A stretch of DNA of 64,000 nt from Chiloscyllium plagiosum. Lineage: Eukaryota. Position numbers and translations under genes: made by a program. The notes under the pieces are model-generated. The model was not told where the DNA came from. It did not search any database and saw only the letters and a list, made by a program, of their open reading frames with translations. The stretch's first letter is position 1. Every line of letters begins with the position of its first letter. The stretch spans positions 46,373,236-46,437,235 of the forward strand of contig NC_057718.1 in NCBI RefSeq assembly GCF_004010195.1, in the 5' to 3' direction. Positions 7,870 through 53,859 of the stretch are shown here, piece after piece.

Positions 7870-9420
7870 GGGTGCACAGAATGGGAGAATTCCCGGCTCC
7901 CTGAACACGACCTGTAAAATTGTCTGAACATCAGATTCTCATTCCATGGTGCTGGGATTTCTTAAGAGTCAGACTGAGGAGCCCCAGAACAAACACAGAG
8001 TTGTCAGAGACATAAAAGGACTGAGCAGGGTACTGCTTCCAAATGATGGTACTGCTTTGTAGTTTCATAAGCAGCTCTCATCCCTTCACACACTTCCCAT
8101 GTCCCATTCATGCCAGCCACTACATAGCTTCTCCCACACACCATCCTTTCCCCTTAAACCTACCATGCAATTTCACCCAGAATTCACCATGAGTGGGCCA
8201 CAGGACATTTACAAAGATTAAGCAGATAAGGTTGTAAATATCTATTGCAGACTTCACTCTATAGAATAAAATGCTCTCAGTCATAAAATTACTACATTAA
8301 TTTTCTTTTAACTTATTACAACAAGCATTTCATTCCAGTGCATAATCCTTGATAATAACGAGCATTAAAATTCATAGTCCCATTTCAAAGACTCTATAAC
8401 TATTTGTACCTGTCAACCAGACCGCAATGGCACTCAGTCTGCTATGACAATAGTTGTTGTGAAATGTGTCACAGTAATGGAAACATTCAGACTTATCTCA
8501 AAGCTAGAGTGAAATAGCAAGCAATGATTCTTTTGAACTGTCCAGATATATTTTTTCTCAATGATTTAAATGTATTTTAAATGTATGACACTTCTGACAA
8601 GTCTTTTGATACTTTTGATAAATTGCCTTTGGCAGACCTGTTGACAGTTCCATTGGATGTGACAATTAATGAATTTACACAGCTTTTACAAACATTCCTG
8701 ACTACTTTTAACAATTCCAAAAGGCATCTTAACTCTCCCAAAAGGCAGCTTACCTTTCCCAAATGTGTCTCAATTCAAACGGGTACCTTGTCTCTCCAAC
8801 AAAGTACCTGGCTATCCAATGAATCCACAAGCTTCATTGTCCTTACCTGGTCAAATCCATACACTTTGTGATTCAGATACCCAAATCACGACTGATTTCT
8901 ATAGGCACCTGCCTCTGACAAAATGTGACCTGATCCCATGCTTTTTCCTTGCAAAAGTGGTAGATGCCATGTTTGGGGAGGAGACAGCTGATATTTGAGT
9001 GCTTCCATCATTGTCACCTCTTCTTCCTGGCAAATATCCAGGTCAGAATGTCAAATCCAACACCCAGTACGTTCTGTTATTTCCCATCTATTAACACAAG
9101 GCAAACTATAGCACTGAACCTTCTTCAGACATGCTAATCAAATGGTTAGTGCAGGTATGATTATGGTTTCCAGGGTCCCTGTGGGAAGGTACTGATGCAC
9201 TGAATGTCGAAATATCTCTGTCCTGTAGTGCAGAGGTCTCCCAGACATCTCGGAGCATAGTATTACACTGATCCCTCAGCATTCTAACTGAAATTTGTAA
9301 TTCCATGCAGTCAGGCTGGAGTCATCATCACCTGACAATAGGGAGTAATTTTGAGTTTTTGCAATTGTGGAAAGCGGACATCGTCCAATCAGCTGCCCAT
9401 TGTGCATCTCTCCTAATTTA
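7870..9420. mobile_element. Possible highly decayed PIF/Harbinger-like DNA transposon
   Basis: Minus-strand KAWDQV...KCMDLTR (~8845-8950) resembles a Myb/SANT-like accessory domain; weak, boundaries uncertain. Confidence 0.3.
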
Positions 9421-15119: not shown

Positions 15120-17040
15120 CTGGAGCCCGCAAACTGGAAATTCTGAAACTGACATACAGGGTCAAAGGAATCACGGATGTAAATGGGAAGGGACAGGATA
15201 AGAGATAAAAAATCAAGTCCAGGCAGGAAGAGATGGGTTCTGTGGGACAGGCAGAAATAATGGGTCTGCCTGGACTGTCCTAATTGTGGATTTCAAGAAG
15301 GAGATAGAAACGGGCAGAGCGGGGTTGGAGGACCATGAGCTTGGAAGGAGGGGGGGGTAGAGATGACTGGATGAAATGAGACTAGTGACCGTTGTGGCCA
15401 CAATGGCCTGGTGTTCCATGTGGGAACATAGTCCAGGGAGAAATAGGAGGAGGTATCTGAGAGCTGGCACTCAGCCTCTACAATGTAAAGGTCAGTCCAC
15501 AGGTAAAGAGCAACACCCTTGCCAGCAGGCTTAATTCTGGGTTGAGTCTGAGACACAGAGTGCACTCAATTCAGAGGGACAAAGGTTTCAATGGGTGAAG
15601 GGAGCAAAGATATTCAGGTGACAGATGTCACGTTGACAGTTCTTGATGAACAGGCCAAGTGCAGGCCAATGGTTGGGTCCAGGTGGAGGAAGAGTGTTGG
15701 AGGTGGACGAAGGGGTCTGTGGGATGTGGAAGGGACTCTTGTCAAAAGACATGGACATGAAGACAATGGAAGAAGAGTTCAATATCATGTACCAGAAAAT
15801 TCTTTGAGCTGGAGCATATGAGGCTACGTACTAGATACTAATGCATACCTTGGAGTGGATAGGCCAGATGGGAAGAAGGAGCAGCTAAGATTGCTACTTA
15901 TGAGGAGGTAGTGTTGATTCTGTAAAGAACAACAAGAGAGATGCAGATCAAGGAGTTGTGTATTTATTCAAAATGAATTCAAGTTGGGGAATAGTAGGAC
16001 ACGCAAGTAATTGTGGATGTTTGGGTTATGACAGAGAGGGAAGAGTACCTGAACTGGAGCAAATTAAAGCCTGAAGGTCTAGGTTACGGAAGGGGATAAG
16101 AAAACAGACAGTGCAGAAGAACCTAAAACTAAAAGAAGGGAATTTTTTAAAATGGTCATGGTGCAGGCGAGATATCCAAAATGGTAGAGGTGCCTATTGC
16201 TGAACATTACTTGGGTATCTGAATTAACAGTCCAGTGAAAATACCACTGGGCCATTGCCTACTTGCTGAGATGGGGACAGCTGTGGATTGGCCAGTGGAA
16301 GAAAAGTGTAGCACTTAACAGCAACTCCACAAGTGTTTACCAGTATGCAGAGCAGGAAGAGATCACTGTTCATCCAGCAAACCAGAGAGATCGGAATAGG
16401 TTAAGTACAGCCAGGATTACAGGCTCTATGGAATTTCGGAGTCAAAACATGGGAGAGTGGTGGAGAAACAGGATTTATCCCTGAAGAAGGCAGGGAATCT
16501 GCACAGCGTCCAGAACAGCAATCCTGGCAGGAGAAGCCAGTACTACACAGGTACAATGAATGCAGAAGGTAACATGTGATGGGCTGGGCACTGAATGCTG
16601 GTGGTGGTTAAATCTGACATGATTAAATGGAACAGCAGCCGAGGCACACAGTATCCTCCATCTGAGCAGTGTTGACCTGTTGGCTCAGGAAAATAATCAA
16701 ACAGGAGTAGAATGCCAGCAATAGTAAAGAGCACAGTCAGAAACATGGAACAAACTGGGTCGAGGAGGATGGGCTGCATTTCAATTGTAGACTGAGCTAA
16801 AATGTACCCAAAATGGATCAGGAACACACAGAGTGCAGTCAGGGCATCAGGGAGTAGAAACCTCCAAAATTCTCACCTCCAAAACACTACCTGGCCTGAA
16901 CATGGTACAGGCTGCAATCTGCACATCTCAACCCAGCCTGAGGAAGAGTTACACTAGACTCAAACTCTATCTCTGTTTCTCTCTCCACAAATGCCGCCAG
17001 ACCTGCTGTGTTTCTCCAGCATTCTCCATTTTTGTTTCAA
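15120..17040 (-). mobile_element. Decayed Penelope-like element, N-terminal/RT portion
   Basis: ORF 15293-15565 IKPAGKGVALYLWTDLYIVEAECQLSDTSSY matches PLE RT IKPADKGGAVV; pLTR-like sequence at 16970-17040. Confidence 0.7.
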
Positions 17041-17848: not shown

Positions 17849-18213
17849 CATCTTGAGTTAGCTGCTTTGTCCTGAGACTATAGAGGTGAATAAAAAAAAG
17901 TGTTACTGCTCACATGATCCAAAAGTAAATAAAGGATACTTGACTGCATTTGACATGGCCAATGACTGATGTTAAGGTAAGTTGTAATAGACAAAGGGAT
18001 TAGGACAAGGGCTAAGGAATAGCAAATGACTATTGGATGATTAAAAACGAACTATATGCATAGTGAAACAGAAACAGCAAATGGCATTTTTAATGGGACA
18101 AAATGGGTTTGTCACACTGGCTAGAGAATCAGATATCTAAAAGTTTATTAACAATTAACAATGAACACTGATAGGACACCCCAGACTTATATACAGCCTG
18201 GGTTATACACTTA

Positions 18214-18344
18214 GGAGAAAGTGAGGACTGCAGATGCTGGAGATCAGGGTCGAGAGTGTGGTGCTGGATAAGCACAGCAGGTCAGGCAGCATCTGAGGAG
18301 CAGGAGAATCGATGTATTGGGCATAAGGCCTTCATCAGGAATGC
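18214..18344 (-). mobile_element. Solo PLE pLTR fragment with degenerate hammerhead core and 12-bp TSD
   Basis: gttatacactta at 18202-18213 and 18345-18356; minus strand cctgatgaaggccttatgccc. Confidence 0.85.
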
Positions 18345-18784
18345 GTTATACACTTACTTTGATGACTACTATATTTTCTATGTTGCTGACTAGCTGTGTA
18401 AGTTGGGGACCTTCTATATTACCGCAACACATGTCATGATGTCGTCTAGCTGTCTTATGCGTATAATGCCTTCCTGAGATCTGTGCAATAATATAACAAT
18501 TGGAAGGTACAAATACAATGCTAATAAGTCCTATACGCCATCATAGTGCAAGCAATCTCCCCACTCAGTACAGATGTTTGGAATATGTGCATTTTTTAAA
18601 AAAAAACAAATACCATGGTAAATTGAGTCTTTTAAAGATCAGCTTAAAAATATACTGTTATGGGATAAGGAAAAGTGTAAAATAGATGATCAAATACTCT
18701 ATGGAGTAATTTTGTTCTGAGACCGGACCATGAAAATGCCATTGTTTGAAATGCAGTTTTTTAAAAAATATTTTGTAAGTGTTC

Positions 18785-20649: not shown

Positions 20650-21810
20650 TAGTGTCCATTGGGTGTTCTTTTCAGTTGCTTCATCAGTGACCTTCATTCC
20701 AACATCAGGTCAGAATGAGGATATTTGCTGATGATTGCATAATGTTCAACACCATTCACAACTCCTCAGATACTGACTAAATGCTGCAAGACTTGGACAG
20801 TATCCAGGTGTGGACTAGTAAATGGAAAATAACATTCATGTCATTGAAGTGCCAGGTAATGACCATCTTCAACAAGAGAAAATCTAACCATCGCTTCTTG
20901 ACATTCAATGACATTCCTATCACTAAATTCCACACTGTCCATATATCAGTGTTACCGTACACCAGAAACTGAATTAGACTAGCCATATAAATACAGTGGC
21001 TATGAGACCAGTTCAAAGGCTTGGAATTCTACAGTACATAACCCACCTCCTGACTCTCTAAAGTCAAGAATGTAGTACTGGAAAAGCACAGCAAGTCAGG
21101 CAGCATCCGAGGAGCAGGAAAAACAATGTTTTGGTCGAAAGCCCTACACCATTCCTAATGAAGGGCTTTTGCCCAAAACATTGATTTTCCTGCTCCTCAG
21201 ATGCTGCCTGATCTGTTGTGTTTTTCCAGCACCACACTCTTGACTGTAATCTCCCTCCTGACTCTCCAAAGCCTGTCCACCATCTACAAGTCACAAATCA
21301 GGACAGTGATGGAATACTCCTACACTTGATTGATGAGTGCAGCTCCAGCAACACTCAAGAAGCTTGACACCATCCAGGATAAAAGCAGCCCTCTTGATTG
21401 GCACAGCATCCACAAACATCCACTCCCTCCACTACCGACACTCAGTAGCAGCAGTGTGTACCATCTACAAGATGCGCTGCAGAAATTCACCACAAAGATC
21501 CTTAGACCACATCTTACATGACCACTTCCATCTAGAAGGACAACAGCAGCAAATACATGAGAACACCACCACCTGCAATTCTCCTCCAAGCCACTCACCA
21601 TCCTGACTTTGAAGTATATCACTGTCCCTTCAGTGTTACTGGGTCAAAATCCTGGAACTCCCTCCTGATTGGCATTGTGGGTCTACCTACAGCACGTGGA
21701 CTGAAGCAGTTCAAGAAAGCAGCTCACCATCACCTTCTCAAGGGTGACTAGGAGTGGGCAATAAATTGATGCCTCCCTCAGCAAAGTCCACATTCCATGA
21801 ATAAATTTTA
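20650..21810 (+). mobile_element. CR1/Jockey-group LINE RT and 3' end, interrupted by a PLE hairpin element
   Basis: FADD at ~20724; LQDLDSIQVWTSKWKITF; TLKKLDTIQDK...HSVAAVCTIYK; 3' UTR gggcaataaat. Confidence 0.85.
21064..21253. mobile_element. Palindromic PLE-derived mini-element with 18-bp TSD
   Basis: Arms ctggaaaagcacagcaagtcaggcagcatc / gatgctgcctgatctgttgtgtttttccag; TSD cctcctgactctc(t/c)aaag at 21046-21063 and 21254-21271. Confidence 0.85.
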
Positions 21811-22714: not shown

Positions 22715-22880
22715 TGGAAATGACAAGCAAAAACTGAAAGAACTGGAGATGCTCAGTGTGTCAGGCAGAGCATCTGTGGAAAGCAGCAACCAGATGAAGG
22801 GTTATGCCTGAAACGTTAACTGGTCACTTCTCCACAGATGCTCTGCCTGATTCACTGAATGTTTCCAGCATTTTTGTTTT
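22715..22880. mobile_element. Older palindromic PLE-derived element with central hammerhead-like core
   Basis: Arms tcaggcagagcatctgtgga / tccacagatgctctgcctga; centre cagatgaagggttatgcctgaaacgtt. Confidence 0.75.
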
Positions 22881-23711
22881 GTACTGAATTACATGAGGGA
22901 GGCATAACAGAAGTGGTCAGATGCAGCATCAATGCTTAACTAAGAGGAAAGATCTTGAAATATCACAACTGTAGAGGCACTACATTAAAACATGAGACAG
23001 AAGACAATAAATTTTATCCTAATTACCGAAAGCAGTATAAAGGAGCAGCAATGCTTGTATTTACATACAATGTCCTTATAAATGTGAGTGACTGGGGATG
23101 ATATTCTTCACATTTCACTTGTTAATCATTTTATTAATAAATTGGCTTCTTCCGAGTCCCTTTATTAAATACAAAGGCAATGCTTTAAAGTAAGTCAACA
23201 GTGATTTTTTTTTTGAAAAATTTCAGCTTTGGTATAATCAAATAGAAATCCTACATCAGGTTTAATTTTATAAATTAATGGACAACAAAGAATTCTCATT
23301 TATTTTTATTGAAATAATAAATGCACTTGCAACACTAACTGGCTGCAGTTCTCGTTTTGACATATTTAAACCTTCTGTACTAAAATACATGAAACTTTTA
23401 ATTCAAAAAAAGTGATTTTGATGTTTGGTAAGAATTACTTAGCTGCCCTACACTGTAAAGCATTCCCATAACACCTGAGGTGAGAAAGAACCTTTTCTTG
23501 AATGGGATTGTTGAGGTTTACAGTGCTGCCTTCACAATTGCTCATCCCACACTGACATCTTCCCAAGGTTTGCATAATCTCCCTTCTTCCCCATCGTGTT
23601 ACACGTCTACTTACTCGAACATCATCTTCATCACCTTGCTCTGCATCCTACCTTGAGAAAAGGCTAAGTCACATAATTACTACACCCATACACGTACAGA
23701 AAGTGATCAAG

Positions 23712-24600: not shown

Positions 24601-25280
24601 ACATATAGCTACAGAGACAGCAGTGTAAATTGCCACAGGACTAAAATTTTCTGAACATTGTCGTGAAACAAATGTTCAGCTTGCCACATTGGTGGATAAT
24701 TTTACCTTTATCTTCTGGGTTAAACTGGACTTTGGTGCTCACTGAAGTGGAACTGATGGCAAATACAATGTGAACATTTCATTGATTAGAAACGTTAAGT
24801 CAGTGTTAAGCTCAGTGGCAATGGTGCCAAGTGTTTTCTTAATCATCTCAATATTAAACTCGAAACACAAAAGAGAAAGGGTCATCCTGATGCTGCAGCA
24901 CAGCTTTTTCCATTATCAACCATGACCATCTGGCACCAAAATTGGCAAGCATGTGGTGCAGATTTTGTTGTGGATTCCTGCTCACTGAACTGATGCTGAG
25001 TCTGGCAGCAATCGGCTCTGAGTGTAAACCAGAACAACAAGCGATGAGATGTGCCGGATTAACACTCTATACTTAACAAACGGTAATTCCACTCCTTCTG
25101 ACAGGATAGGCTTTGGAGTTGATTTTGACTTTTCAAACATATTTTTAGTAACATCACTACCCATAACAATTACTGCAATTCATTTATCTTGTTGGACAAT
25201 CCCAAGAACAAGCAAGGTTGTCCAACAAGTAAATGTTTATGCCAAACATCCTTTAATCAATGATGCGGAATACATTGATT

Positions 25281-26732
25281 CGAGAGTGTGTTGCTGGAAA
25301 AGCACAGCAGGTCAGGCAGCATCTGAGGAGCAGTAGAATCAACGTTTCGGGTATAAGCCCTTCATCAGGAATGAGACTTGTGGGCGGGGCATGGAGTGAT
25401 GAATGGGAGGGGGGGTGGGCATCGGTGGGGGGGGGGAAGGTAGCTGAGGAAGCGATAGGTGGATAAAGGTGAGGGAGAAGGTGAGAGGTCAGAGGGTGGA
25501 GTGATGGACAGGTCAAAGAGCAGTGCCTAGTTGAAGGCTTGAGACTGGGATAATGTGAGGGGAGGAGAAATAGGGAAACTGTTGAAATCCACATTTATCC
25601 CATGTGGTTGCAGGGTTCCAAGGCGGAATATGAGGCGTTCTTCCTCCAGGCATCAGGTGGGAACGGTTTGGCAGTGGAGGAGGCCCAGGACCTGCATGGC
25701 CTCCTTCTTCCCAAAGGAGTGGAATGGGGAGTTGAAGTGTTCAGCCATGGGGGGGTAGGGTTGGTGGGTGCCAGTGTCCCAGAGATATTCTCTGAAACAA
25801 TCCGCAAGCAGGTGTCCTGTCTCCTCGATGTAGGGGAGGCCACATCTGGTGCAATGGATTCAGTACATGACGTTGGTAGAGGTACAGTTAAATTTCTGCT
25901 AGATGTGGAAGGATCCCTTAGGACTTTGGGCAGAGATGAGGTGAGTGGTGTGCACTTCCTATGGTGGCAGGGAAAGGCGCCAGGAATGGGATGTGGGCTG
26001 GTGGGGGGGCAAGGACCTGATGAGGGACTCGTGGAGGAAATAGTCTCTCTGGAACGCTGACAGGAGTGGGGAGGGAAATATATCTCTGGTGGTGGGGTCT
26101 GTTTGGGGGTGGCAGAAGTGGGGGAGGAGGATGTGATGTATGCAGAGGTTGGTGGGGTGGAAGCTGAGGACTGGGGGGTTCTGTCCTTGTTGCGTTGGGA
26201 GGGGTGGGGTTCAAGGGTAGTGGTACATGAAGTGGAAGAGATGTGTTGGAGGGCATCGTCAACCACATGGGAAGGGAAGTTGCGATTTGGGAAGAAGGAG
26301 GCCATCTGGGACTTTGAGGTGGAATTGGTAATCCTGGGAACAGATGTAGTGGAGGCAGAGGAATTGGGAATAACAGATGGCATTTTTACAGGAGGTAGGG
26401 TGGGAGGAGGTGTATTCTAGATAGGTGTGGGAGTCAGTGGGCTTGTAGTATATGCCTGTGGTTAGTCAGTCACTGGAGATGGTGATGGAGAGGTCCAGGA
26501 AGGGGAGGGAGATGTCCAAGATGGTCCAGATGAATTTGAGGTCGGGGTGGGAGGGATTGGTAAAGTTGATGAACTGTTCAACCTCTTCATGGAAGCACAA
26601 GGTAGCACCGATACAGTCATCAATGTAGCGGAGGAACAGGTGGGGGTGGTGCCAGTGTAACTGCGGAAGATGGACTGTTCCACATACCTAACCAACAGGC
26701 AGGCATAGCTGGGGCTCATGCAGATCCCCAGG
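25281..26732 (-). mobile_element. Penelope-like element (RT C-terminus, GIY-YIG, pLTR) with 10-bp TSD
   Basis: GICMSPSYACLLVRYVEQSIFRSYTG; homologous to 30100-31570; TSD tacattgatt at 25271-25280 and 26733-26742. Confidence 0.9.
25341..25368 (-). ncRNA. Minimal type I hammerhead ribozyme core in PLE pLTR
   Basis: Minus strand CTGATGA-a-GGG cttata CCC-GAAA-CGTT; conserved core intact, helix III reduced to palindromic ACGT, cleavage triplet GUU. Confidence 0.7.
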
Positions 26733-29544: not shown

Positions 29545-31578
29545 GAAAATGGGTTTTGGGCAAAAGCCCTTCATCAGGAATGAGGCTAAGAGCTGAGGGG
29601 GTGGTGAGATAAATGGGAGGGGAGTGGGGCTTGGGAAATGGTAGCTGAGAGTGCAATAGATAAATGAAGGTGGGGGTCAAGGTGATAGGTCAGAGAGGAG
29701 GGTGGAGCGGATAAATGGGAAGGAAGATGGACAGGCAGGACAGGTCGTGAGGGCAGTGCCAAGTTGGAAGGTTGGATCTGGGATAGGTGGGGGTTGGGGA
29801 AGTGAGGAAACTGGTGAAATCCATATTGATGCTGTGGGGTTGGAGGTCCATGGTGAAGGTGAGGCATTGGGGGCCAGGGAAACAAAAGGACCCCAATTCC
29901 TAATGCCTAACACCTCATCTTCACCATGGACATCCAGTCCCTGTACATCTCCATCCGCCATGACCACGGCCTCCAAGCCCTTCGTTTCTTCTTCTCCCGG
30001 TGTCCCCAATAGTATCCTTCCACCGACACTCTCATTTTTTTGGCTGAACTGGTTCTCACCCTCAATAATTTCTCCTTCAAATCCTCCCATTTCCTCCAGA
30101 TGCCCTGCATGGGCCCCAGCTATGCCTACCTCTTTGTCGGCTACATGGAACAGACCATCTTCCAGAGTTACATCATGTACCACTCCCCACCTCTTCCTCT
30201 GTTACATTAATGACTGCATCGGCGCCACCTCATGCTCCTGTGAGGAGGTTGAACAGTTCATCAACTTCACGAACACATTCCACCCTGACCTTAAATTCAC
30301 CTGGACCATCTCAGACACCTCCCTCCCCTTCCTAGACCTCTCCACCTCCAACAACAGAGACCGACTCAACACTGACATCTTCTACAAACCCACCAACTCC
30401 CACAGCTACCTGGATCACACCACCTCCCACCCTGCATCCTGTAAAAATGCTATCCCTTATTCCCAATTCCTCTGCCTCTGCCACATCTGCTCCCAGGAGG
30501 ACCAGTTCCACCACAGAACACGCCTCCTTCTTTATAGGCTGCAATTTCCCCTCCAATGCATCTCATCCACTTCCCATACCTTCGCCCTCAGACCTCACTC
30601 CTCCAACCATAACAAGGTCAGAACCCCCAGTCCTCGCCTTCCACCTCCGTATTCATCACATCATCCTCTGCCATTTCCACCACCTACAAACGGACACCAC
30701 CAGAGATATATTTCCCTCCACACCCCTATCCACTTTCTGTAAAACCGTTCCCTCCGCAACTATTTGGTCAAGTCCATGCCCCCTAACAAGCCACCCCCCC
30801 GTCCTGGCACCTTTCCCTGCCACCGCAAGAATTACAAAACCTGCACCCACACCTCCTCCCTCACCACCATCCAATGCCCCAAAGGAGCCTTCCACATCCA
30901 AAGTTTTACCTGCATTTCCACCCAGGTCATTTACTGTATCTGTTGCTCCCGATGCGGTCTCCTCTATATTGGGGAGGCAGGACGCCTACTACAGAGTATT
31001 TCAGAGAACATCTCCAGAACACCCGCACCAATCAACCCCACCATCCCATGGCCAAACACTTTAACTCTCTCCCTCCCATTCCACCAAGGACATGCAGGTC
31101 CTGGGCCTTCTCTATTGCCACTCCCTAACTACCGAACGCCTGGAGGAAGAACGTCTCATCTTCTGCCTCAGGACTCTCCAACCTCACGACATGTAAGTGG
31201 ATTTCACCAGTTTCCTCATTTCCCCTGCCCCCACCTTATCCCAGGTCCAATCTTCCAGCTCAGCATCGCCCTCATGACCTGTCCAGGCTGCCCATCTTCC
31301 TTTCCACCTATCTGCTCCACCCTCCTCTCTGATCTATCATCTTCACCCCCACATTCATCCACATATTGCACTCTCAGCAATCTTTCCCCCAGCCCTAACC
31401 CCCTCCCCTCCCATTTACCTCACCAACCCCCTCAGCTGACAGCCTCATTTCCGATGAAGGGGGCTTTTACCTGAAACATCCACTCTCCCGCTCCTGATGC
31501 TGCCTGACCTGTTGTGCTTTTCCAGCAGCTCACTCTTTACTCTAATCTCCAGCATCTGCACACCTCACTTTCACCCAG
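29545..31578 (+). mobile_element. Penelope-like element (RT, GIY-YIG, pLTR) with inverted 5' segment
   Basis: LFLCYINDCIG (YIDD-like), PFLDL, DIFYKPTNSHSYL, VIYCICCSRCGLLYIGEAGR; 29545-29870 is an inverted copy of ~31160-31480. Confidence 0.92.
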
Positions 31579-31804
31579 TTGATTTTTTAAAAAATGCGTT
31601 GTGTTAGTTACTGCCAAATAATCTTCCTAACCTTGGAATTTTACTTTTCTAAGCAATCCCATGCCTTCAAGTATTACTTTTTAAAACTTTCCTTCATAGC
31701 TGGTAGGCAACGATACCTAGTCTGGAACTTTTTCTCCACCTATAATTGCCTTTAAGAGAGCAACAAGCTGTGTTCATGAACTGACATAGGTACATCCAAA
31801 TTGC

Positions 31805-40884: not shown

Positions 40885-41711
40885 CATTCACGACTGTGGC
40901 CAAACTCCGCCCCAACTCCATTTACAAGTTTATTGATGGCACCACAGTTGTAGGTTGGATCTCAAATACGACAACACAGAATACAGGGAAGAGATTGAGT
41001 GCTTAGCGGCATGGTATAAAAACAACACTCTCTCCATCAACATCAATAAGATGGAGGAGCTGGTCATAGACTTCAAGAAGCAGAGTGGAGGGCACGCGGC
41101 TGTCTGCGTCAGTGGTGTTGTGGTGGCGATGGTAGAGAGGGTCAAGCTCCTGGGAGCGATGATCACCAACAATCTGTCCTGTCCACCCACATCAATGTGA
41201 CGGTCAAGAAAACACAAAGTCTCTATTTCCTCAGAAGCCTAAGAAAATTAAGCATGTCCACAAAGTATCTTACCAATTTTTATAGGATACTTTCTATGGT
41301 GCATCTATCTGGATGCATTACAGTGTGGTTTGGCAACTATTCTTTCCAATGCAAGAAACTACAGAGAGTCATGAACATAGCCCAGGTCATCACACAAACC
41401 AGCCTGCCACTGACTGACTCCAGCTAAACTTCCTGCAGCCTCAGGAAAGCGACCAACATAACTAAAGACCCCTCCCTCCCCTTCTGTCAAGCAGAAGATA
41501 TAAAAGTTTGAGTACATCTGCAAACAGATTCAAGAACAGCTTCTTCCCCGTTGTTATTGAACTTTTGAACAGACCTCTCCAAGGTTAATGCTGATCTCTC
41601 TCTCTCTCTGCAACAGCTCTGCGGCTGTAACCTGTATTCTGCGCTCTGCTCCGTTACCTGATGCACTTTATATGGTACCATTTGCCTGTACAGCACACAA
41701 AACAACATGTT
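40885..41711 (+). mobile_element. Rex1/Babar LINE 3' fragment
   Basis: NSIYKFIDGTTVVG (FADD-derived); EYREEIECLAAWYKNNTLSININKMEELVIDFKKQ; LYFLRSLRK; tail aataaatcaaatcaaa. Confidence 0.85.
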
Positions 41712-43479: not shown

Positions 43480-46400
43480 CCCAAGTAGTCCTAAAAGGGC
43501 TGCCACATCTTATAAAAATTCTCAGTTTTATGGTGCACCATACTCGTAAGCAAGTCTAATGGGATGCGTTCCATGACTAACTTATGCCAGCCCAACAGCC
43601 CCAGGGGGGTTTTCAGACACCCACCCTAACAGAATGTTCTTTCTTGCACAAAAAGTGAGGAGACTGAAAAGCCTTTTTTTGTGTGCATCTAATGGAAGTG
43701 AATTAATAGGACCAAGAAGAGGAGATACCGGGTCCACCTCCATCTCTGTCCCCAAGAGCCTCTTTATTCCGTCTATCACAGCACTCCAGTATGGCCACCG
43801 CCCGTGGCAGGACCAGAGACAATGAGTCAGCATGCGCATACTCACTTTGCATTTAGGACACATCGCAGATGCAAGGTGATCTGCAGCCAAGTGGACCCTG
43901 TGGAGAATCTTCAATTGCAAGGTTGGAGTCCTGTTGCAAATTGAGATCCTTCTTGCATTTTCCCAGATATCCTCCCATGTTTCAGAAGAAATCTCAACAT
44001 CCAGTTCCCTCTCCCAAACTTTACAGAGCCGTTCAGACTCGTCCAAGTGACCCTCTCCCAATAGGTGAGAAACATGGCCGACAAAGTGTACCCTCAGCAC
44101 TCGCTTCGCCATTTCAGAGCTGTAAGAATCAGATGGAAGTGTGGTCTCTTTTTGTTCGAAATTTCTAATTTGAAGAAAACAGAAGAGGTCCGTACTGGGC
44201 AACTCATATTTCCGAGCCAACTGGTCAAAAGACATTCGTATGCCCCCTGCAAATAACTCACCCAGGCAAGACACGCCCCTAGTTGCCCATAGTTTAAACC
44301 CCGAATCCATCATCCCTGGCTGAAAACCTGGCATACCAACTAGGAGTGTAAAAAAATGATGTTTTGGCAAAATTGCCCTCACTCTGATGCATTGCCCTCC
44401 ACGCTTTGACGGTATTAATAAACTATTGGGTTACAGCAATACTCGTAAACTGTCCTCATTTTGTCCCAGAACAGCAAGCTAGTAAGGGGGCATCTTTCCT
44501 GAGAAGCTTCGATGTCCAACCAAAATGAGTCAGGATCCCCCCTGGCCCAATCATTCACGTAAAATAACAATGAGCGTAATTGATTATTTCTGATATCTGG
44601 GAGGCCTACTCCTCCCAGCCTGGAAGGTAACTGCAGTTCAGATCAGTTTAATTAGGGGTCGCTTGCGATACCAGATAAAAGAACTAAACCAGCCATTCAG
44701 CCTTCTAAATATTTGCTTCATAAAAAGCAGAGGGCCATTTACATAAGATACAACAGGCGGGGCAGAATGATAATTTTAATGAGGGCTATCTGACCTAACC
44801 AAGAGATCGGAAGCGCCTTCCATCTACAAAGGCTCTGCTTGATCCTGTCGAATAAATGGACAAAATTGGTTTTAAATACCCAATCAAAGACGGGAGCAAT
44901 GAACATACCCAAGTAGAGAAAGCCCTCCTACAACTACCCAAAAGGAAAATCGCGATTCGCCCTCAGAATCAGGTATTTTCAAAAGACCATCCATGGGCAT
45001 GGCCTCTGATTTCTCAAAGTTGACCTTTTAAACCAAAAAGCCACCAAATAAATTACTGCATTGTATCAGATGTGGCACGGAAACTGTTGGTTTGATAAGA
45101 CGACAAGCATGTCATCCGCTTATAATGCAATCTTATGTGACTTTGTCCCCACTTCTGGAGTGGGGATATTGGAATCCCTATATATTGCCATTGCCAGTGG
45201 TTTGATCACCAATGTGAAAAGCAACGGTGATAAGGGCAGCCTTGTCAACTGCCCCTACGAATGTTAAAATTGCTTGACCGCACACCATTGGTGAGGACTG
45301 TGGCAAGAGGGTCACTACCCTGATAAAAGCCTCACCCAGGCCAAACCGCTTTAAAGTATAAAAAAGATATGGCCACTCGACCCAGTCAAATGCCTTTTCC
45401 ACGTCTAAAGAGATCACTAATCCCTGTACCGATTGCTGTTAACATACCTGGACCATGTTAGGCAACCTCCTGACATTATTCAACAAGCTGTGTCCTTTAA
45501 TACACCCCGCCTGGTCCTCATTAATGATGGAGGACAGTACAGTTTCTAGCCTTCGTGTCAAAATCTTAGATAGGATTTTGAAATTGACATTCAGGAATGA
45601 AATGTGCCTATCAGAAGCGCAATTTTCCGGTGCCTTCCCTTTTTTTTTAAAAAGGTGAGAGAGATGTTCGCCTCTCCTAGCGATACTGGGAGGAGGGCAT
45701 GACTGTGTGAGTCATTAAACATACTAAGCATTGGTCCTGACAACATACTTACAAATTCCTTCTAGAACTCACTGGGGAGCCTGTCAGGACCAGGCGCCTT
45801 TCCGTTCTAGAGCTGCCTTAGTCTCCTGCACCTCCTGCTCTGACAACTGGGCATTAAGGACAGACTCTTGTCCAGGGGTCACTCATGGAAGGTCCAAACT
45901 TTTTATTAAAAAAGCACTCCATCCTAATCCAGCCATCCTCACAACTTTCAGACTGGTGTAGTTCAGAGTTAAATTTCCAAACTACTGCATTAATCCCTTT
46001 AGAATCAGAGTCGAATTTCCAGTGTCCTCCCTGATCAAGGTAATGGCATGGGGAGCACTCCTTTTCCTGGCAAGGTACCGTACGTACTTGCCCAGCTTAT
46101 CCCCATGCTCAAACAGCCTTTGACTTGCAAATGTAAGCTCCCTGTTGGCTGTCCATATGAGCATGGAGCTCAGTGTGGACCGAAACGCTGTGATCCTCTG
46201 CAGTTTAGCCTGTCAAAGTATACCTTTTCAGCTGCTTTTAGATATGTCTCAAGCAAGCGTTGCTGCTCACACATTTGCTGTTTCTTACTGGCTGAATAGG
46301 AAACAGCTAACCCCCTAGCATAGGCTTTAGCAGTTTTTTAGAGAATGGATGGATTACTGGCAGAGCCTGAATTAAATGTCTAAAAAAGCCTTGAACTCAG

Positions 46401-46800
46401 TCGAAAAGAATTCAGTAAAAGTACTATCCTCGAGGATGAAGGAGTCCAGTTGCCAATGCCTCAAACCTACCATAGTATCCTTACTCTTGACCATTAGATC
46501 CACTGGGGTGTGATCAGAAATAGTGATAATGCCAATTGTACATGACACCACCATTCTTTCTAACTAGAATGGCCACCTCTTTACTCTTTGTATTAAAAGA
46601 TGAGAAATAAACTCGGTCATTACCATTCTGTTGTAGTTTCAAATGCTCTGCATCATCTAGGTGTTTCTTGCAATAAGGCAACATCCACCCTCTTCCTTTT
46701 AAGACTGGAAAGTACCTTCCTCTTGACCAGCGAGTGACTCCCCTCAATGTTCCTGGTGCACCACTTGAACACATCCTCAGCCATAACCTTCTAGAGCACC
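43480..46800 (-). pseudogene. L1 ORF2p (APE, RT, Cys-rich tail), disrupted with internal deletions
   Basis: DVALLQET / ISDHTPV (APE); [24 protein letters not shown] at ~45110-45120 (RT); CPKCKVSMRMLTHCLWSC (C-terminal). Confidence 0.88.
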
Positions 46801-47324
46801 ATTTAGACTCCAGAGAGGGAGTATTTGAACTACAAATCACAACTTCAATGCAAGAAAATCCATAAAACCCAAAAACTACATAAACTAAAATAACTACAGC
46901 CAACAAAGCTACAAAATTTACAAAAACTATATATACCAAAAACAAACAAACAAAAAAAATCGCCAAAGGCACCGATTCAAGGAATTTACCCCATTTACAG
47001 GGGACACCTACACACCCCACAACCCTACTAATCATCCCAACCATCCTCTCAACTCTTACCAGCTAGGGTCATACCACATGCACTGGCAACCTGGTAGAAA
47101 AAAAAAACAAAAACAAGACTAGTACCATAAACAAGTAAGTTAAAAATAAAAATATTACCCATCCCTTGGTATAGCTTAGCTTAGAGATTAAAAGGTAAAT
47201 ACTCTATCCATCCAGAGCACAATTTAACGCAACTTATTACCAACAGAAAGGAGACTCCACTAAGTCCTCTTTAAAGGAGGACAAACCTGAACAGCTCCAT
47301 CCTATTCCTATTCGATCGCCTTAT

Positions 47325-48000
47325 TTAAGTCAGCATGTCCACAAAGTTCCTTGCTTTCGCTGGCGAGTCAAATAAATGTACAGATCCATTATGATTGATC
47401 CGAAGCACTGCTGGATATCTTAAAGAGTACTGGATCCCAAGCTCTCTCAATCTCTTCTTGACACCATCGTAGGACTTCCTTTTCCGGATCACCGCCGCCA
47501 AAAAGTCCTGAAAGAACGTGACCCTTGAGCGCCCACACACCAAAGCCCTTGGATACCTCCCCTGTGCTCTGGAAGCTTCCATGACTTTCTGCTTGTCTTT
47601 ATAATGACGGAACCTGACCAGGACAGGGCGGGTGCGCTGGTCCATACTTGGCTTTGGTGCTGTGACCTGGTGGGCTCTCTCAACCTTTATACTTCCCTTT
47701 TCAGCCTTCAAACTAAGGAATTCCGGGAACCACTTCTCAAAGAACTCTACCGGTCGCTCACCTTCCATCCCCCCCAGTGTGCCAACAACATGAAGGTTCT
47801 TTCTTCTGCCCCCGTTTGAGATCATCCACCAGATCCAACAAGCTACGGACCTGTGTTTCCAGGGCTTTAATCCAGCTTTTGGAGGAGTCAGTCTCTGCCT
47901 CTACTCCTGTGGCCCAGCACTCGAGTTCATCGGTCCTTTTCCCCCAGGTCTTGCAGCATAGCAGACACTGCAGCCAGTTTCTCATTGAGGTTTTTTCCCA
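47325..48000 (-). pseudogene. L1 ORF1p (coiled coil, RRM, CTD), frameshifted
   Basis: IKALETQVRSLLDLVDDL; GRRKNLHVVG...VERAHQV...RPVLVRF...FFQDF...LRYPAVLRI. Confidence 0.88.
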
Positions 48001-48346
48001 TCAGTCTGCTTCCCCAGGACCTCGCAGACTTGGCCAGTTCCTCAAACAGGAGCTGGTGAGTAAGCAAGCCTGCTGCTCAGTGGGCTAGGCCATAGCCCAG
48101 GCCCCAGGCGAGCTTCCTCCTTTCTTCAGCATTCTCTTCTGCATAAAAACAAAGGTAAATAACCTTTTTCAGGTTCTCTAGCTCTTTTACTGTGTTTTTA
48201 CTCACAGTAATGTGGATGGGGCGGGTTCCGGCTCTGTCCTGTCGATGTCGCGGCGCGGAGCCCAGCAAACACGATCCTATCAGGACGCTGCCATCTTGAA
48301 TCCCAACCACCACCACCATCGCCACCCCCCCGCCTCGATTATTCTT

Positions 48347-51932: not shown

Positions 51933-52063
51933 ACTATTGCTCTGGGGACATGGGCTCAAATTCCCCTAGGGCAGCTGATGGAATTAAATTCAGTTAAAAT
52001 CTCGAATTAAAGGTGGTTGTAGTAACAATGAACATGGCATTACCAATTGCCTTAAAAATCCAT

Positions 52064-52272
52064 TTCAAGGTTGTGGTGCTGGAAAAGCACAACAGGTCAG
52101 GCAGCCTCTGAGGAGCAGGAGAATCAACGGTTTCGGCAAAAGCCCTTCATCAGGCTTATGCTTGAAATGTCGATTCTCCTGCTCCTCGGATGCTGCCTGA
52201 CCTGCTGTGCTTTTTCCAGCACCATACTCTCGACTCTGATCTCCAGCATCTGCAGTCCTCAGTTGCTCCTAG
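52064..52272. mobile_element. Palindromic PLE-derived mini-element with 11-bp TSD
   Basis: Inverted arms; minus-strand cctgatgaagggcttttgccgaaacc; TSD taaaa(a/g)tccat at 52053-52063 and 52273-52283. Confidence 0.85.
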
Positions 52273-52979
52273 TAAAAGTCCATCCGCTTCACTAAATCTG
52301 CTGTTTCTACCAGTCTAGCCTACACGCGACTCTCGACACACAGTAACGTGGTTGACTCTTCAATGGCCTAACAAGCCAGTCAATTCAAGGTCAATTATGA
52401 CCAGATGATAAAAGGATGCCTTTGTCAGTGATGCCCATTTCTCATGAAAGAATAAAGAAAATAAAAATGGACACTGAGCTACATAAACAATACTAGATAA
52501 GATGGCCAAATGCACTATCAAAGAGAAACTCCTTTAAGAAGTAAGGATCTTAAAATGAGTTAAGAAAACCCAAAAGATTTTGGGAGGAAATTCCAGAGCC
52601 TAAGGCCCTGGCACTTGAGGCATGGTCGCCAATGGTGAAGCAGTTAAAAAAGGGCAAACTCTGGAGGCCTATGTTAAAGCTGTACAAATACCTGAAGATT
52701 GTAGGGCCAGATACTGGTCGAGAGGGGTGAAACCGCAAAGGAATTTGACAGGGATGAAAATTTTAAACCAAGGTATTGCTTAATCCAATATTGGTCAGTG
52801 CTCAGGGAGCTAGGTAAATTGAACTGGTGTGAATTAAGATATTGGCAGCAGGTTTGGATGAGCTGAATTTTATAAAAAGGGTAAAATGTGAAAGGCTAGC
52901 CAGGAGTGCATTGAAATAGCCAAGTATTACCAAACAAAAATGAAGGTTTCAACAGCACATGAGCTAAGGTGAGGTGAAG

Positions 52980-53210
52980 AGTCAAGGGTCGAGTGGTGCT
53001 AGAAAAGTACAGCAGGCCAGGCAGCATCTGCGGAGCAGGAAAATCAATGTTTTGGGCAATAGCCCTTCATCAGGTAGTCCTGAAGAAGGACTTTTGCCCG
53101 AAACGTCTATTTTCCTGTTCCTCGGATGCTGCCTGGCCTGCTGTGCTGTTCCAGCACTACTCTAATCTAGACTCTAATGTCCAGCATCTGCGGGTCCCAT
53201 TACGCCTGAA
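52980..53210. mobile_element. Palindromic PLE-derived mini-element with two opposed hammerhead cores and 11-bp TSD
   Basis: TSD gtgaggtgaag at 52969-52979 and 53211-53221; centre ...agcccttcatcagg tagt cctgaagaaggacttttgcccgaaacgtc. Confidence 0.88.
53080..53107 (+). ncRNA. Minimal type I hammerhead ribozyme core
   Basis: CTGAAGA-a-GGAC tttt GCCC-GAAA-CGTC; GUC cleavage triplet; one helix II mismatch. Confidence 0.65.
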
Positions 53211-53859
53211 GTGAGGTGAAGTCCAGTAATGCTACAGCAGTTGAAATAGGTTTTAGTAATGATGTCAGAGAACATGGTCAGAAGCTCAACCTGGAGCCGA
53301 ATAAGGCACTTGGAAGAAACAAGACGACAGCAAGGGAGCATTTGAAGGATTTCAATGTCCACTCTATAAGCAGCTTTGTCGCTCTATAACTGGTACCTGC
53401 AAGACCAAACCGACAGCTGTTGGCAAGAGAACCAATGCAATGAATTTCATCCTCACCAGTCTACCTGTTGCAGATGTATATCTACAACTATATTAGTAGG
53501 AGTGACCAATGTAATGACCTAGTCAAGAGAAAATTCCCTCAGAGGGAACCCTCCATTGTATTGTGTAACATTACTGCCACATTAAATAAAATAAATTCAG
53601 ATCAGATCTAGCAGCTCAAATCTGGTCATTCCCACATAGAGTAGGCTGTCAGAGACAGGTGGACTTCAACCTAGACTTTTGTTTTGCCGATCTTGTGACA
53701 CTACCACTGTGCCACAAACTCCAAACGGTAACCTGGCATACCACCTCACCCCACCATTACCATCAATGGAAGTGTGTGCCAGAATTCAGCTAGAAGCACC
53801 TAAAGGATGATGCACTTCAGCCTCCTCCCAGGGCCCTCAACATCCCAGAAGCCCAGTAG

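Follow-up and report, generated by a model that had tools for sequence, protein, structure and literature searches.

Does a short DNA hairpin that bears a hammerhead-like motif on each strand represent a mobile unit in its own right, or is it the product of one insertion event of a larger element? This question is raised by positions 52969-53221 of the window studied here (i.e., the whole stretch of 64,000 nucleotides that was analysed, from contig NC_057718.1 of Chiloscyllium plagiosum). The original prediction saw in this locus a retrozyme-like unit, moved in trans by the protein of a Penelope-like element (PLE) and carrying a ribozyme core in the transcripts of both strands. We consider it probable that the locus is a target-duplicated, head-to-head pair of PLE ends, likely made once at this place by the endonuclease and reverse transcriptase (RT) of a PLE, in which the hammerheads are predicted to be inactive passengers. 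Published work is cited below for those parts of the papers that were available to us.

Two mirror-image ends of one PLE family

The insert is 231 bases long and consists of two mirror-image PLE end-pieces inside an 11-base target duplication (TSD), laid out as TSD, left arm, 3-nt centre, right arm, tail and TSD (Table 1). Taken as an inverted repeat, the arms (52978-53074 and 53079-53175, 97 nt each, with 4 nt between them) are 81% complementary, and the 18 differences in 97 comprise 10 transitions and 8 transversions, four of the differences being of CpG type. Folded as RNA, the hairpin has a minimum free energy of -156.6 kcal/mol (z -16.6), equalled by none of 200 shuffles. The duplicated sequence, GTGAGGTGAAG, is present in exact copies at the two ends of the insert and has no further occurrence within the window; as a control for chance, any exact 11-mer was common to 57 of 200,000 random pairs of 31-nt stretches of the window. 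The arms, the fold energy and the exact 11-mer thus bear out the long inverted repeat of about 230 bp with a perfect 11-bp TSD that had been proposed, and the insert is indeed non-coding and TSD-flanked. The 35 nt of the tail remain unpaired, the left arm having no counterpart to them, so that the hairpin is asymmetric. The last two nucleotides of the left TSD copy (52978-52979) match the continuation of the PLE terminal repeat (pLTR), and these letters may point to a microhomology used in priming.

Table 1. Positions of the parts of the hairpin and of the other insertions of its family in the window
Feature	Positions	Strand	Remarks
Left TSD copy, 11 bp	52969..52979	+	exact match to right copy
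Left arm: inverted tail-less pLTR	52980..53074	-	outer end tail-less, inner end one base before hammerhead C3
Minimal type I hammerhead motif, minus strand	53046..53073	-	decayed
3-nt centre	53075..53077	.	TAG
Right arm: sense pLTR	53078..53175	+	first base lies two before hammerhead C3
Minimal type I hammerhead motif, plus strand	53080..53107	+	
PLE tail, 35 nt	53176..53210	+	right arm only; tail as defined in the available parts of PMC3846280, PMC8557442 and PMC11167929
Right TSD copy	53211..53221	+	exact match to left copy
Second hairpin	52053..52283	+	11-bp TSD with one mismatch; right arm without CUGANGA box; different centre
Third hairpin	21046..21266	-	exact 13-bp TSD; different centre
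Solo pLTR with tail	18202..18355	-	exact 11-bp TSD; begins about 5 bases upstream of C3
Long form, head-to-head	29545..31579	+	inverted piece 29545-29871, then sense RT/GIY-YIG body ending in pLTR and tail
5'-truncated PLE body	25280..26731	-	tail-less pLTR end

When the hairpin was compared with the window by BLAST, the same repeat was found at five further insertions (two hairpins, one solo repeat and two long copies), which makes six insertions of this PLE family within 64 kb. The long copies encode remnants of an RT and an endonuclease, and the repeat ends both of these coding remnants (29926-31258 and 25572-26731); the arms of the hairpin are therefore PLE pLTRs, as had been predicted from the letters, and the view that the insert needed an RT/GIY-YIG protein supplied by a coding PLE copy was, in our judgement, right. 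One frame of the window, used as a 106-aa query, has as its best relative a protein of Chiloscyllium punctatum (P0001) with 71% identity over 88% (two matches among 20 candidates), and this protein aligns along both long copies, 25280-26731 and 29545-31579. Its Pfam matches to RVT_1 (E 0.008) and GIY-YIG (E 0.00025) are weak, both lying below the curated cut-offs, and four PLE ORF pieces taken from the window gave no Pfam match. The linker between RT and endonuclease contains, ahead of the GIY-YIG domain of P0001, a C-x4-C-x2-C motif that is partly retained in the ORFs of the window. A Zn-finger-like Cys motif in this linker is a feature of the Neptune/Nematis clade (PMC8557442), and the motif suggests a Neptune/Nematis-like family.

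A head-to-head arrangement of this kind, with longer arms, is also seen in the copy at 29545-31579, so that short and long forms belong to one series. For the hairpin near 21 kb, the window holds six paralogous host repeats that run across the empty site reconstructed in silico and have the duplicated sequence once, which confirms TSD formation for the family; for 52969-53221, no paralogue spanning an empty site was present in the window, and among 15 of the 74 joints of the DNA runs described below none skips the element. The flanking bins 52835-52969 and 53429-53482 have a depth above single copy in all three DNA runs, which suggests that the element landed in or beside an old repeat of low identity. 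The insertion itself is old and has since decayed, with loss of CpG sites in the minus core among other changes. In organism C, contigs span both junctions, extending 41 and 52 letters into the element, and in organism B one contig spans the right junction with 62 letters of the element, the substitution in these contigs being 3.7-5.0%; since the junctions are common to two related organisms, the insertion predates their split.

Several further observations concern the neighbours of the hairpin. The hairpins at 52053-52283 and 52969-53221 are independent, of different subfamilies, in the same orientation and 685 bases apart. In the long copy, the outer end of the inverted piece 29545-29871 lies inside the hammerhead and not at the tail-less site, and a short inverted repeat (29836-29871 / 29906-29941) brackets the inversion point. 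The solo pLTR has, at 18339-18345 (minus strand), one G after the TSD and then family sequence from 5 bases upstream of C3; the family's upstream sequence resembles the consensus of an initiator element, and the extra G could be cap-derived. A fold-back of a second PLE-like family occupies 22726-22885 (55-nt arms, 75% complementary, around a 50-nt spacer that holds one hammerhead-like core on the plus strand at 22791, the centre being asymmetric), and no TSD was found for it. Finally, 16935-17030 is a diverged, solo pLTR-like stub of another family with weak similarity to the arms.

Pfam was run on 104 of the 152 stop-to-stop frames of at least 75 aa (those left out were mainly frames that overlap PLE or other repeat copies), and it returned two RT fragments and one ALKBH8_N match (41050-41424, E 1e-5), with no clear host gene among these 104 frames, a search in which short exons would be missed. 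The frame with the ALKBH8_N match spans 41050-41427; in fishes, this domain is often a mark of LINE 3' ends and not of the gene. Frames on the minus strand at 43582-48088 read as LINE-1-type by inspection (ORF1-like at 47325-47900, RT fragment at 45442-45711), and the RT fragment is the only piece among them with a Pfam match.

Centres, ends and arm states

If the hairpin replicated as such, was it as one unit with one centre? The three hairpins of the family in the window, read by eye, all have different centres and outer ends, a comparison between different subfamilies that leaves the sharing of junctions within a subfamily outside its scope. In the hairpin at 53 kb (52969-53221), the arms include 1 and 2 bases ahead of C3, with the 3-nt centre between them; in the one at 52 kb, one arm includes 1 base ahead of C3 and the other begins inside the core, beyond the CUGANGA box; in the one at 21 kb, one arm includes 4-5 bases ahead of C3, and the other begins just past it.

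A wider view comes from the contigs of three DNA runs, placed on the window at 80% likeness (20,277, 21,065 and 16,023 records). The arms reach a depth of 1e5-3e6, against about 4-12 in unique flank, a depth that is no copy number. One RNA run (X22) gave 0 reads, a figure without bearing on expression. The letters TAG at the centre of our locus are not those of the family: in the three runs, A stands at 53075 in 77-81% of the depth and T at 53077 in 87-89%. The depth across 53075 is 1.4-4.5% of that in the neighbouring arm bin, and since most of it has A at this position, the T of the window is carried by at most 0.3-1.0% of that bin. Among 15 of the 74 joints, nine depart from 53074, every one to a separate place and with 1-3 contigs per run behind it, and no two of 12 fillers (out of 63) are alike, figures to be read with the fact that most joints have under 30 letters on their shorter side and that the list of records favours diverged copies. 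The three hairpins and the joints of the runs, each with centres and ends of their own, thus fail to support the idea of the hairpin as a replicating unit. Hairpins that each have a private centre and ends were the outcome that the original prediction had itself named as refuting it.

Eight of 24 records (themselves 24 of 57,810) cross the centre, six of them with at least 31 letters on both sides; each of the eight has 14-23 other letters and 0-6 gaps, which need not lie at the centre. Because A at 53075 is found in 54-96 contigs per run and two of the centre-crossing records are free of gaps, a centre of this length does recur. Such recurrence fits both repeated joining and descent from one hairpin: with both arms extending to about 4 bases upstream of C3 and overlapping by 2 bases, the same centre would arise again and again without common descent. 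Searched in the collections viral_contigs and genome_contigs, the centre of the hairpin gave 0 matches. Eleven metagenome loci that match a 21-nt pattern of the arms were set aside as chance, with only 21-25 nt matched in each.

At the non-CpG arm columns 52, 76 and 102-104, the two arms of the 53-kb hairpin share their states, those of columns 76 and 102-104 being found in no other of 9 rows and that of column 52 also in both arms of the 21-kb hairpin. Such sharing is what copying from a single template would give, but arm-to-arm conversion could produce it as well. In the 52-kb hairpin, on the other hand, the arms disagree at column 34, and pairwise arm identities (76-89%) do not group the arms by hairpin. 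Column 64, considered as a marker of left and right arms in all three hairpins, was rejected: it is a CpG site, and it fails when the arms are paired by tail length.

The hammerhead motifs and their predicted folding

One core motif per strand had been announced, and one per strand is what we find, the minus core being decayed. The two lie back to back, 7 nt apart, with C3 at 53080 on the plus strand and at 53073 on the minus strand. The plus core keeps all the core letters (CUGANGA, GAAA, the pair G10.1-C11.1, the extra A at 53087 and the palindromic ACGU at 53103-53106), and the cut would fall at 53107^53108. In the minus core, A replaces G at position 12 (53053) and at 16.2 (53048), and U replaces C at 17 (53046), all three changes being of CpG type. 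G12 is a catalytic residue of the hammerhead. Seen against the features of a minimal type I hammerhead, including the NUH site, the plus core has all of them and the minus core departs at 12 and 16.2 and has U17. The stems of the plus core are broken in two places, by an A.C mismatch in stem II at 53090 (where the family has G in 89% of the depth) and by a C.U mismatch in the closing pair of stem I at 53108 (T, where the family has G in 84%), both breaks being private to this copy when set against the depth of the family.

On neither strand is stem II predicted to form, its probability being 0.000 for the full element as well as for the co-transcriptional prefixes (four plus, three minus), a prediction made on naked RNA. 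Forcing the hammerhead fold raises the energy from -145.9 to -113.3 kcal/mol on the plus strand (a cost of about 33) and from -130.3 to -107.8 kcal/mol on the minus strand (about 22). As a control, the isolated left arm does form its stem II (53065-53054, which is intact) with a probability of about 0.98, but not within the whole element; for the plus core, the probability remains under 0.001 when the core is taken without the partner arm. Whichever strand is transcribed, the antisense arm precedes the core. Both motifs are accordingly best described as predicted inactive passengers, sequestered by the hairpin in the folding model. It should be kept in mind that the PLE hammerhead of Anolis needs added protein to cleave (PMC11167929), so that predictions for naked RNA may understate activity.

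The search with hammerhead models that had been suggested found nothing of the kind: no Rfam family reaches its gathering score anywhere in the window, and between 52000 and 53400 the 14 matches found at E up to 10 include no hammerhead model. These (13 miRNA hairpin models and one snoRNA) are generic hairpin matches far below gathering. The hammerhead call thus relies on the description of minimal hammerheads by Cervera and de la Pena 2014 (PMC4209133). As for the predicted cut site, eight of 14 skip-type joints in the DNA runs land just past it, at 53109-53119, a count biased by the private mismatches of the window, and the last letter of one joint filler is the G1.1 of the family; the cut site may be where some second arms begin, which would imply that the RNA copied had been cleaved.

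Origin of the hairpin and comparison with known systems

How could such a pair of ends be made in one event? We infer a course of four steps. The GIY-YIG domain would nick both target strands, 11 nt apart; each 3' end would prime cDNA with PLE RNA as template, starting at the tail end in one case and at the tail-less site, about 35 nt upstream, in the other; synthesis of both cDNAs would end a few bases ahead of the hammerhead core, probably where an uncut RNA has its 5' end; and the two cDNA ends would be joined by short overlaps or filler and then filled in. The product would be TSD, antisense arm, sense arm with tail, TSD. That the RNA starts just ahead of the core is our best guess as to why the arms stop there. 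According to the available text of PMC11167929, the PLE protein of Anolis acts on both target strands, which it cleaves and extends, its RT starts at two internal sites that bound the tail, and it uses mainly unprocessed RNA, hammerhead cleavage being dispensable. PLE insertions often have an inverted, 5'-truncated copy next to them and a tail at one end, and inverted insertions are described across animals (PMC8557442, PMC3846280); the formation of inverted insertions is still called undefined in PMC8557442.

One could also imagine a one-off origin by self-priming, in which a single nucleic acid intermediate folds back near the hammerhead and the first arm serves as template for the second. 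Arkhipova et al. 2013 (PMC3846280), who proposed that an antisense template primes itself, read the palindromes of inverted PLE junctions in this way; the two arms of our hairpin share subfamily states, and the majority letters of the centre make a perfect short palindrome. By itself, however, this process leaves unexplained an arm that ends at the exact tail-less site used also by solo and long copies, with loose ends of contigs at 53156-53157; moreover, two RT start sites and extension on both strands are what was seen in vitro (PMC11167929), and the varied filler of the joints fits end joining, so that we regard self-priming as unlikely here. The recurrent centre, together with a plus-strand transcript that would retain the tail with its RT start region, might instead be taken to mean that the hairpin belongs to a non-autonomous family whose members are transcribed and copied in full, the PLE protein acting in trans and cleavage not being needed; non-autonomous PLEs are known (PMC8557442), and a pLTR sequence suffices for an element to be mobilised in trans (PMC3846280). 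We find this very unlikely, given three centres in the three hairpins of the window and many different joints, the small share of arm depth that crosses 53075, and a stem of about -146 kcal/mol that the RT would have to traverse. In a more specific form, the subset with the recurrent palindromic centre would be a self-propagating, MITE-like palindromic mini-PLE, copied in trans, whose fold-back shields the hammerheads and of which this locus would be an old member; this, too, seems quite unlikely to us.

The retrozyme-like unit of the original prediction, in which hammerheads would cleave themselves, as monomer or dimer, during the life cycle, is the reading to which we give hardly any credence. 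It can appeal to a plus core that retains every conserved core letter and the palindromic ACGU, to the derivation of metazoan non-LTR retrozymes from pLTRs and their report in one chondrichthyan (bioRxiv 10.64898/2026.07.22.740005), and to the Anolis hammerhead that cleaves once protein is added (PMC11167929). Yet there is one core per strand and no tandem array of the unit in the window, where the only tandem array is an unrelated 21-mer (8708-8763); the fold itself is not predicted for naked RNA of the element on either strand, nor for the plus core taken by itself; the minus core is without G12; cleavage at 53107 would break the unit into two halves; and single minimal hammerheads have been described as lacking detectable cleavage in vitro (PMC4209133, available text). 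We therefore come back to the one-off inverted insertion by PLE endonuclease and RT as the preferred explanation.

Taken alone, this locus is of little weight, being an old and decayed insertion of a described type. The family, on the other hand, is very abundant, and in it arm ends, tails, TSDs and centres can be read to the base, so that a census of it could separate double priming from self-priming, and cut from uncut RNA as template. Should it be true that a subset replicates as whole hairpins, this would be an undescribed form of non-autonomous retroelement.

The statement that such a unit is not described in sharks holds in a narrow sense, since we found no paper in the open literature on body-less PLE hairpins in sharks (Repbase/Dfam or subscription journals may hold a consensus); it does not hold more broadly, tandem non-LTR retrozymes being reported in one chondrichthyan and inverted PLE insertions across animals, in the parts of the cited papers available to us. 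Non-LTR retrozymes (Cervera and de la Pena 2020, PMC7229834; Li, Clavereau and Pollet, bioRxiv 10.64898/2026.07.22.740005) are likewise small, non-coding and pLTR-derived, with type I hammerheads and a TSD of more than 4 bp. They are, however, head-to-tail tandems with at least two hammerheads on the same strand, which release a monomer or circle, whereas the present hairpin is inverted, with one core per strand, both predicted to be buried. Poseidon of Anolis carolinensis (Frangieh et al. 2024, PMC11167929) supplies steps of the proposed mechanism, namely two RT starts and cleavage and extension of both strands; the available text reports no inverted products for this in vitro system. Poseidon belongs to a clade different from that of the Neptune/Nematis-like family considered here, which has the Cys-rich RT-EN linker.

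The hammerhead motifs also have close published relatives. The minimal PLE hammerhead (PMC4209133) has the same extra base between 9 and 10.1, the same G10.1-C11.1 pair, a palindromic 15.2-16.2 and no loop on helix III. According to the same paper, minimal hammerheads are mostly single motifs from truncated PLEs, and dual ones on opposite strands, 100-700 bp apart, occur in Schistosoma. Compared with these, the cores described here are only 7 nt apart, with a helix II of 4 bp and a very short helix I, and both are decayed.

The nearest likeness is to PLE insertions themselves, and 52969-53221 shows every structural feature that was tested for an inverted, endonuclease-positive one. The complex insertions described for PLEs (Arkhipova et al. 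2013, PMC3846280; Craig et al. 2021, PMC8557442) also have head-to-head inverted pLTRs with the tail at one end only; the tail is of 35 nt here against 31 nt in A. vaga Pen2a (published range 30-40 bp), and the TSD around the whole unit is of 11 bp here against 8-10 bp in the published insertions. In the published examples consulted, an ORF or other sequence is kept between the repeats, and our hairpin, with its two pLTR stubs that both end within two bases of the hammerhead core, is the limiting case without a body. Inverted pLTRs with a one-sided tail and a TSD, and minimal hammerheads on opposite strands, have thus all been published for PLEs, and by this comparison the hairpin is an ordinary one.
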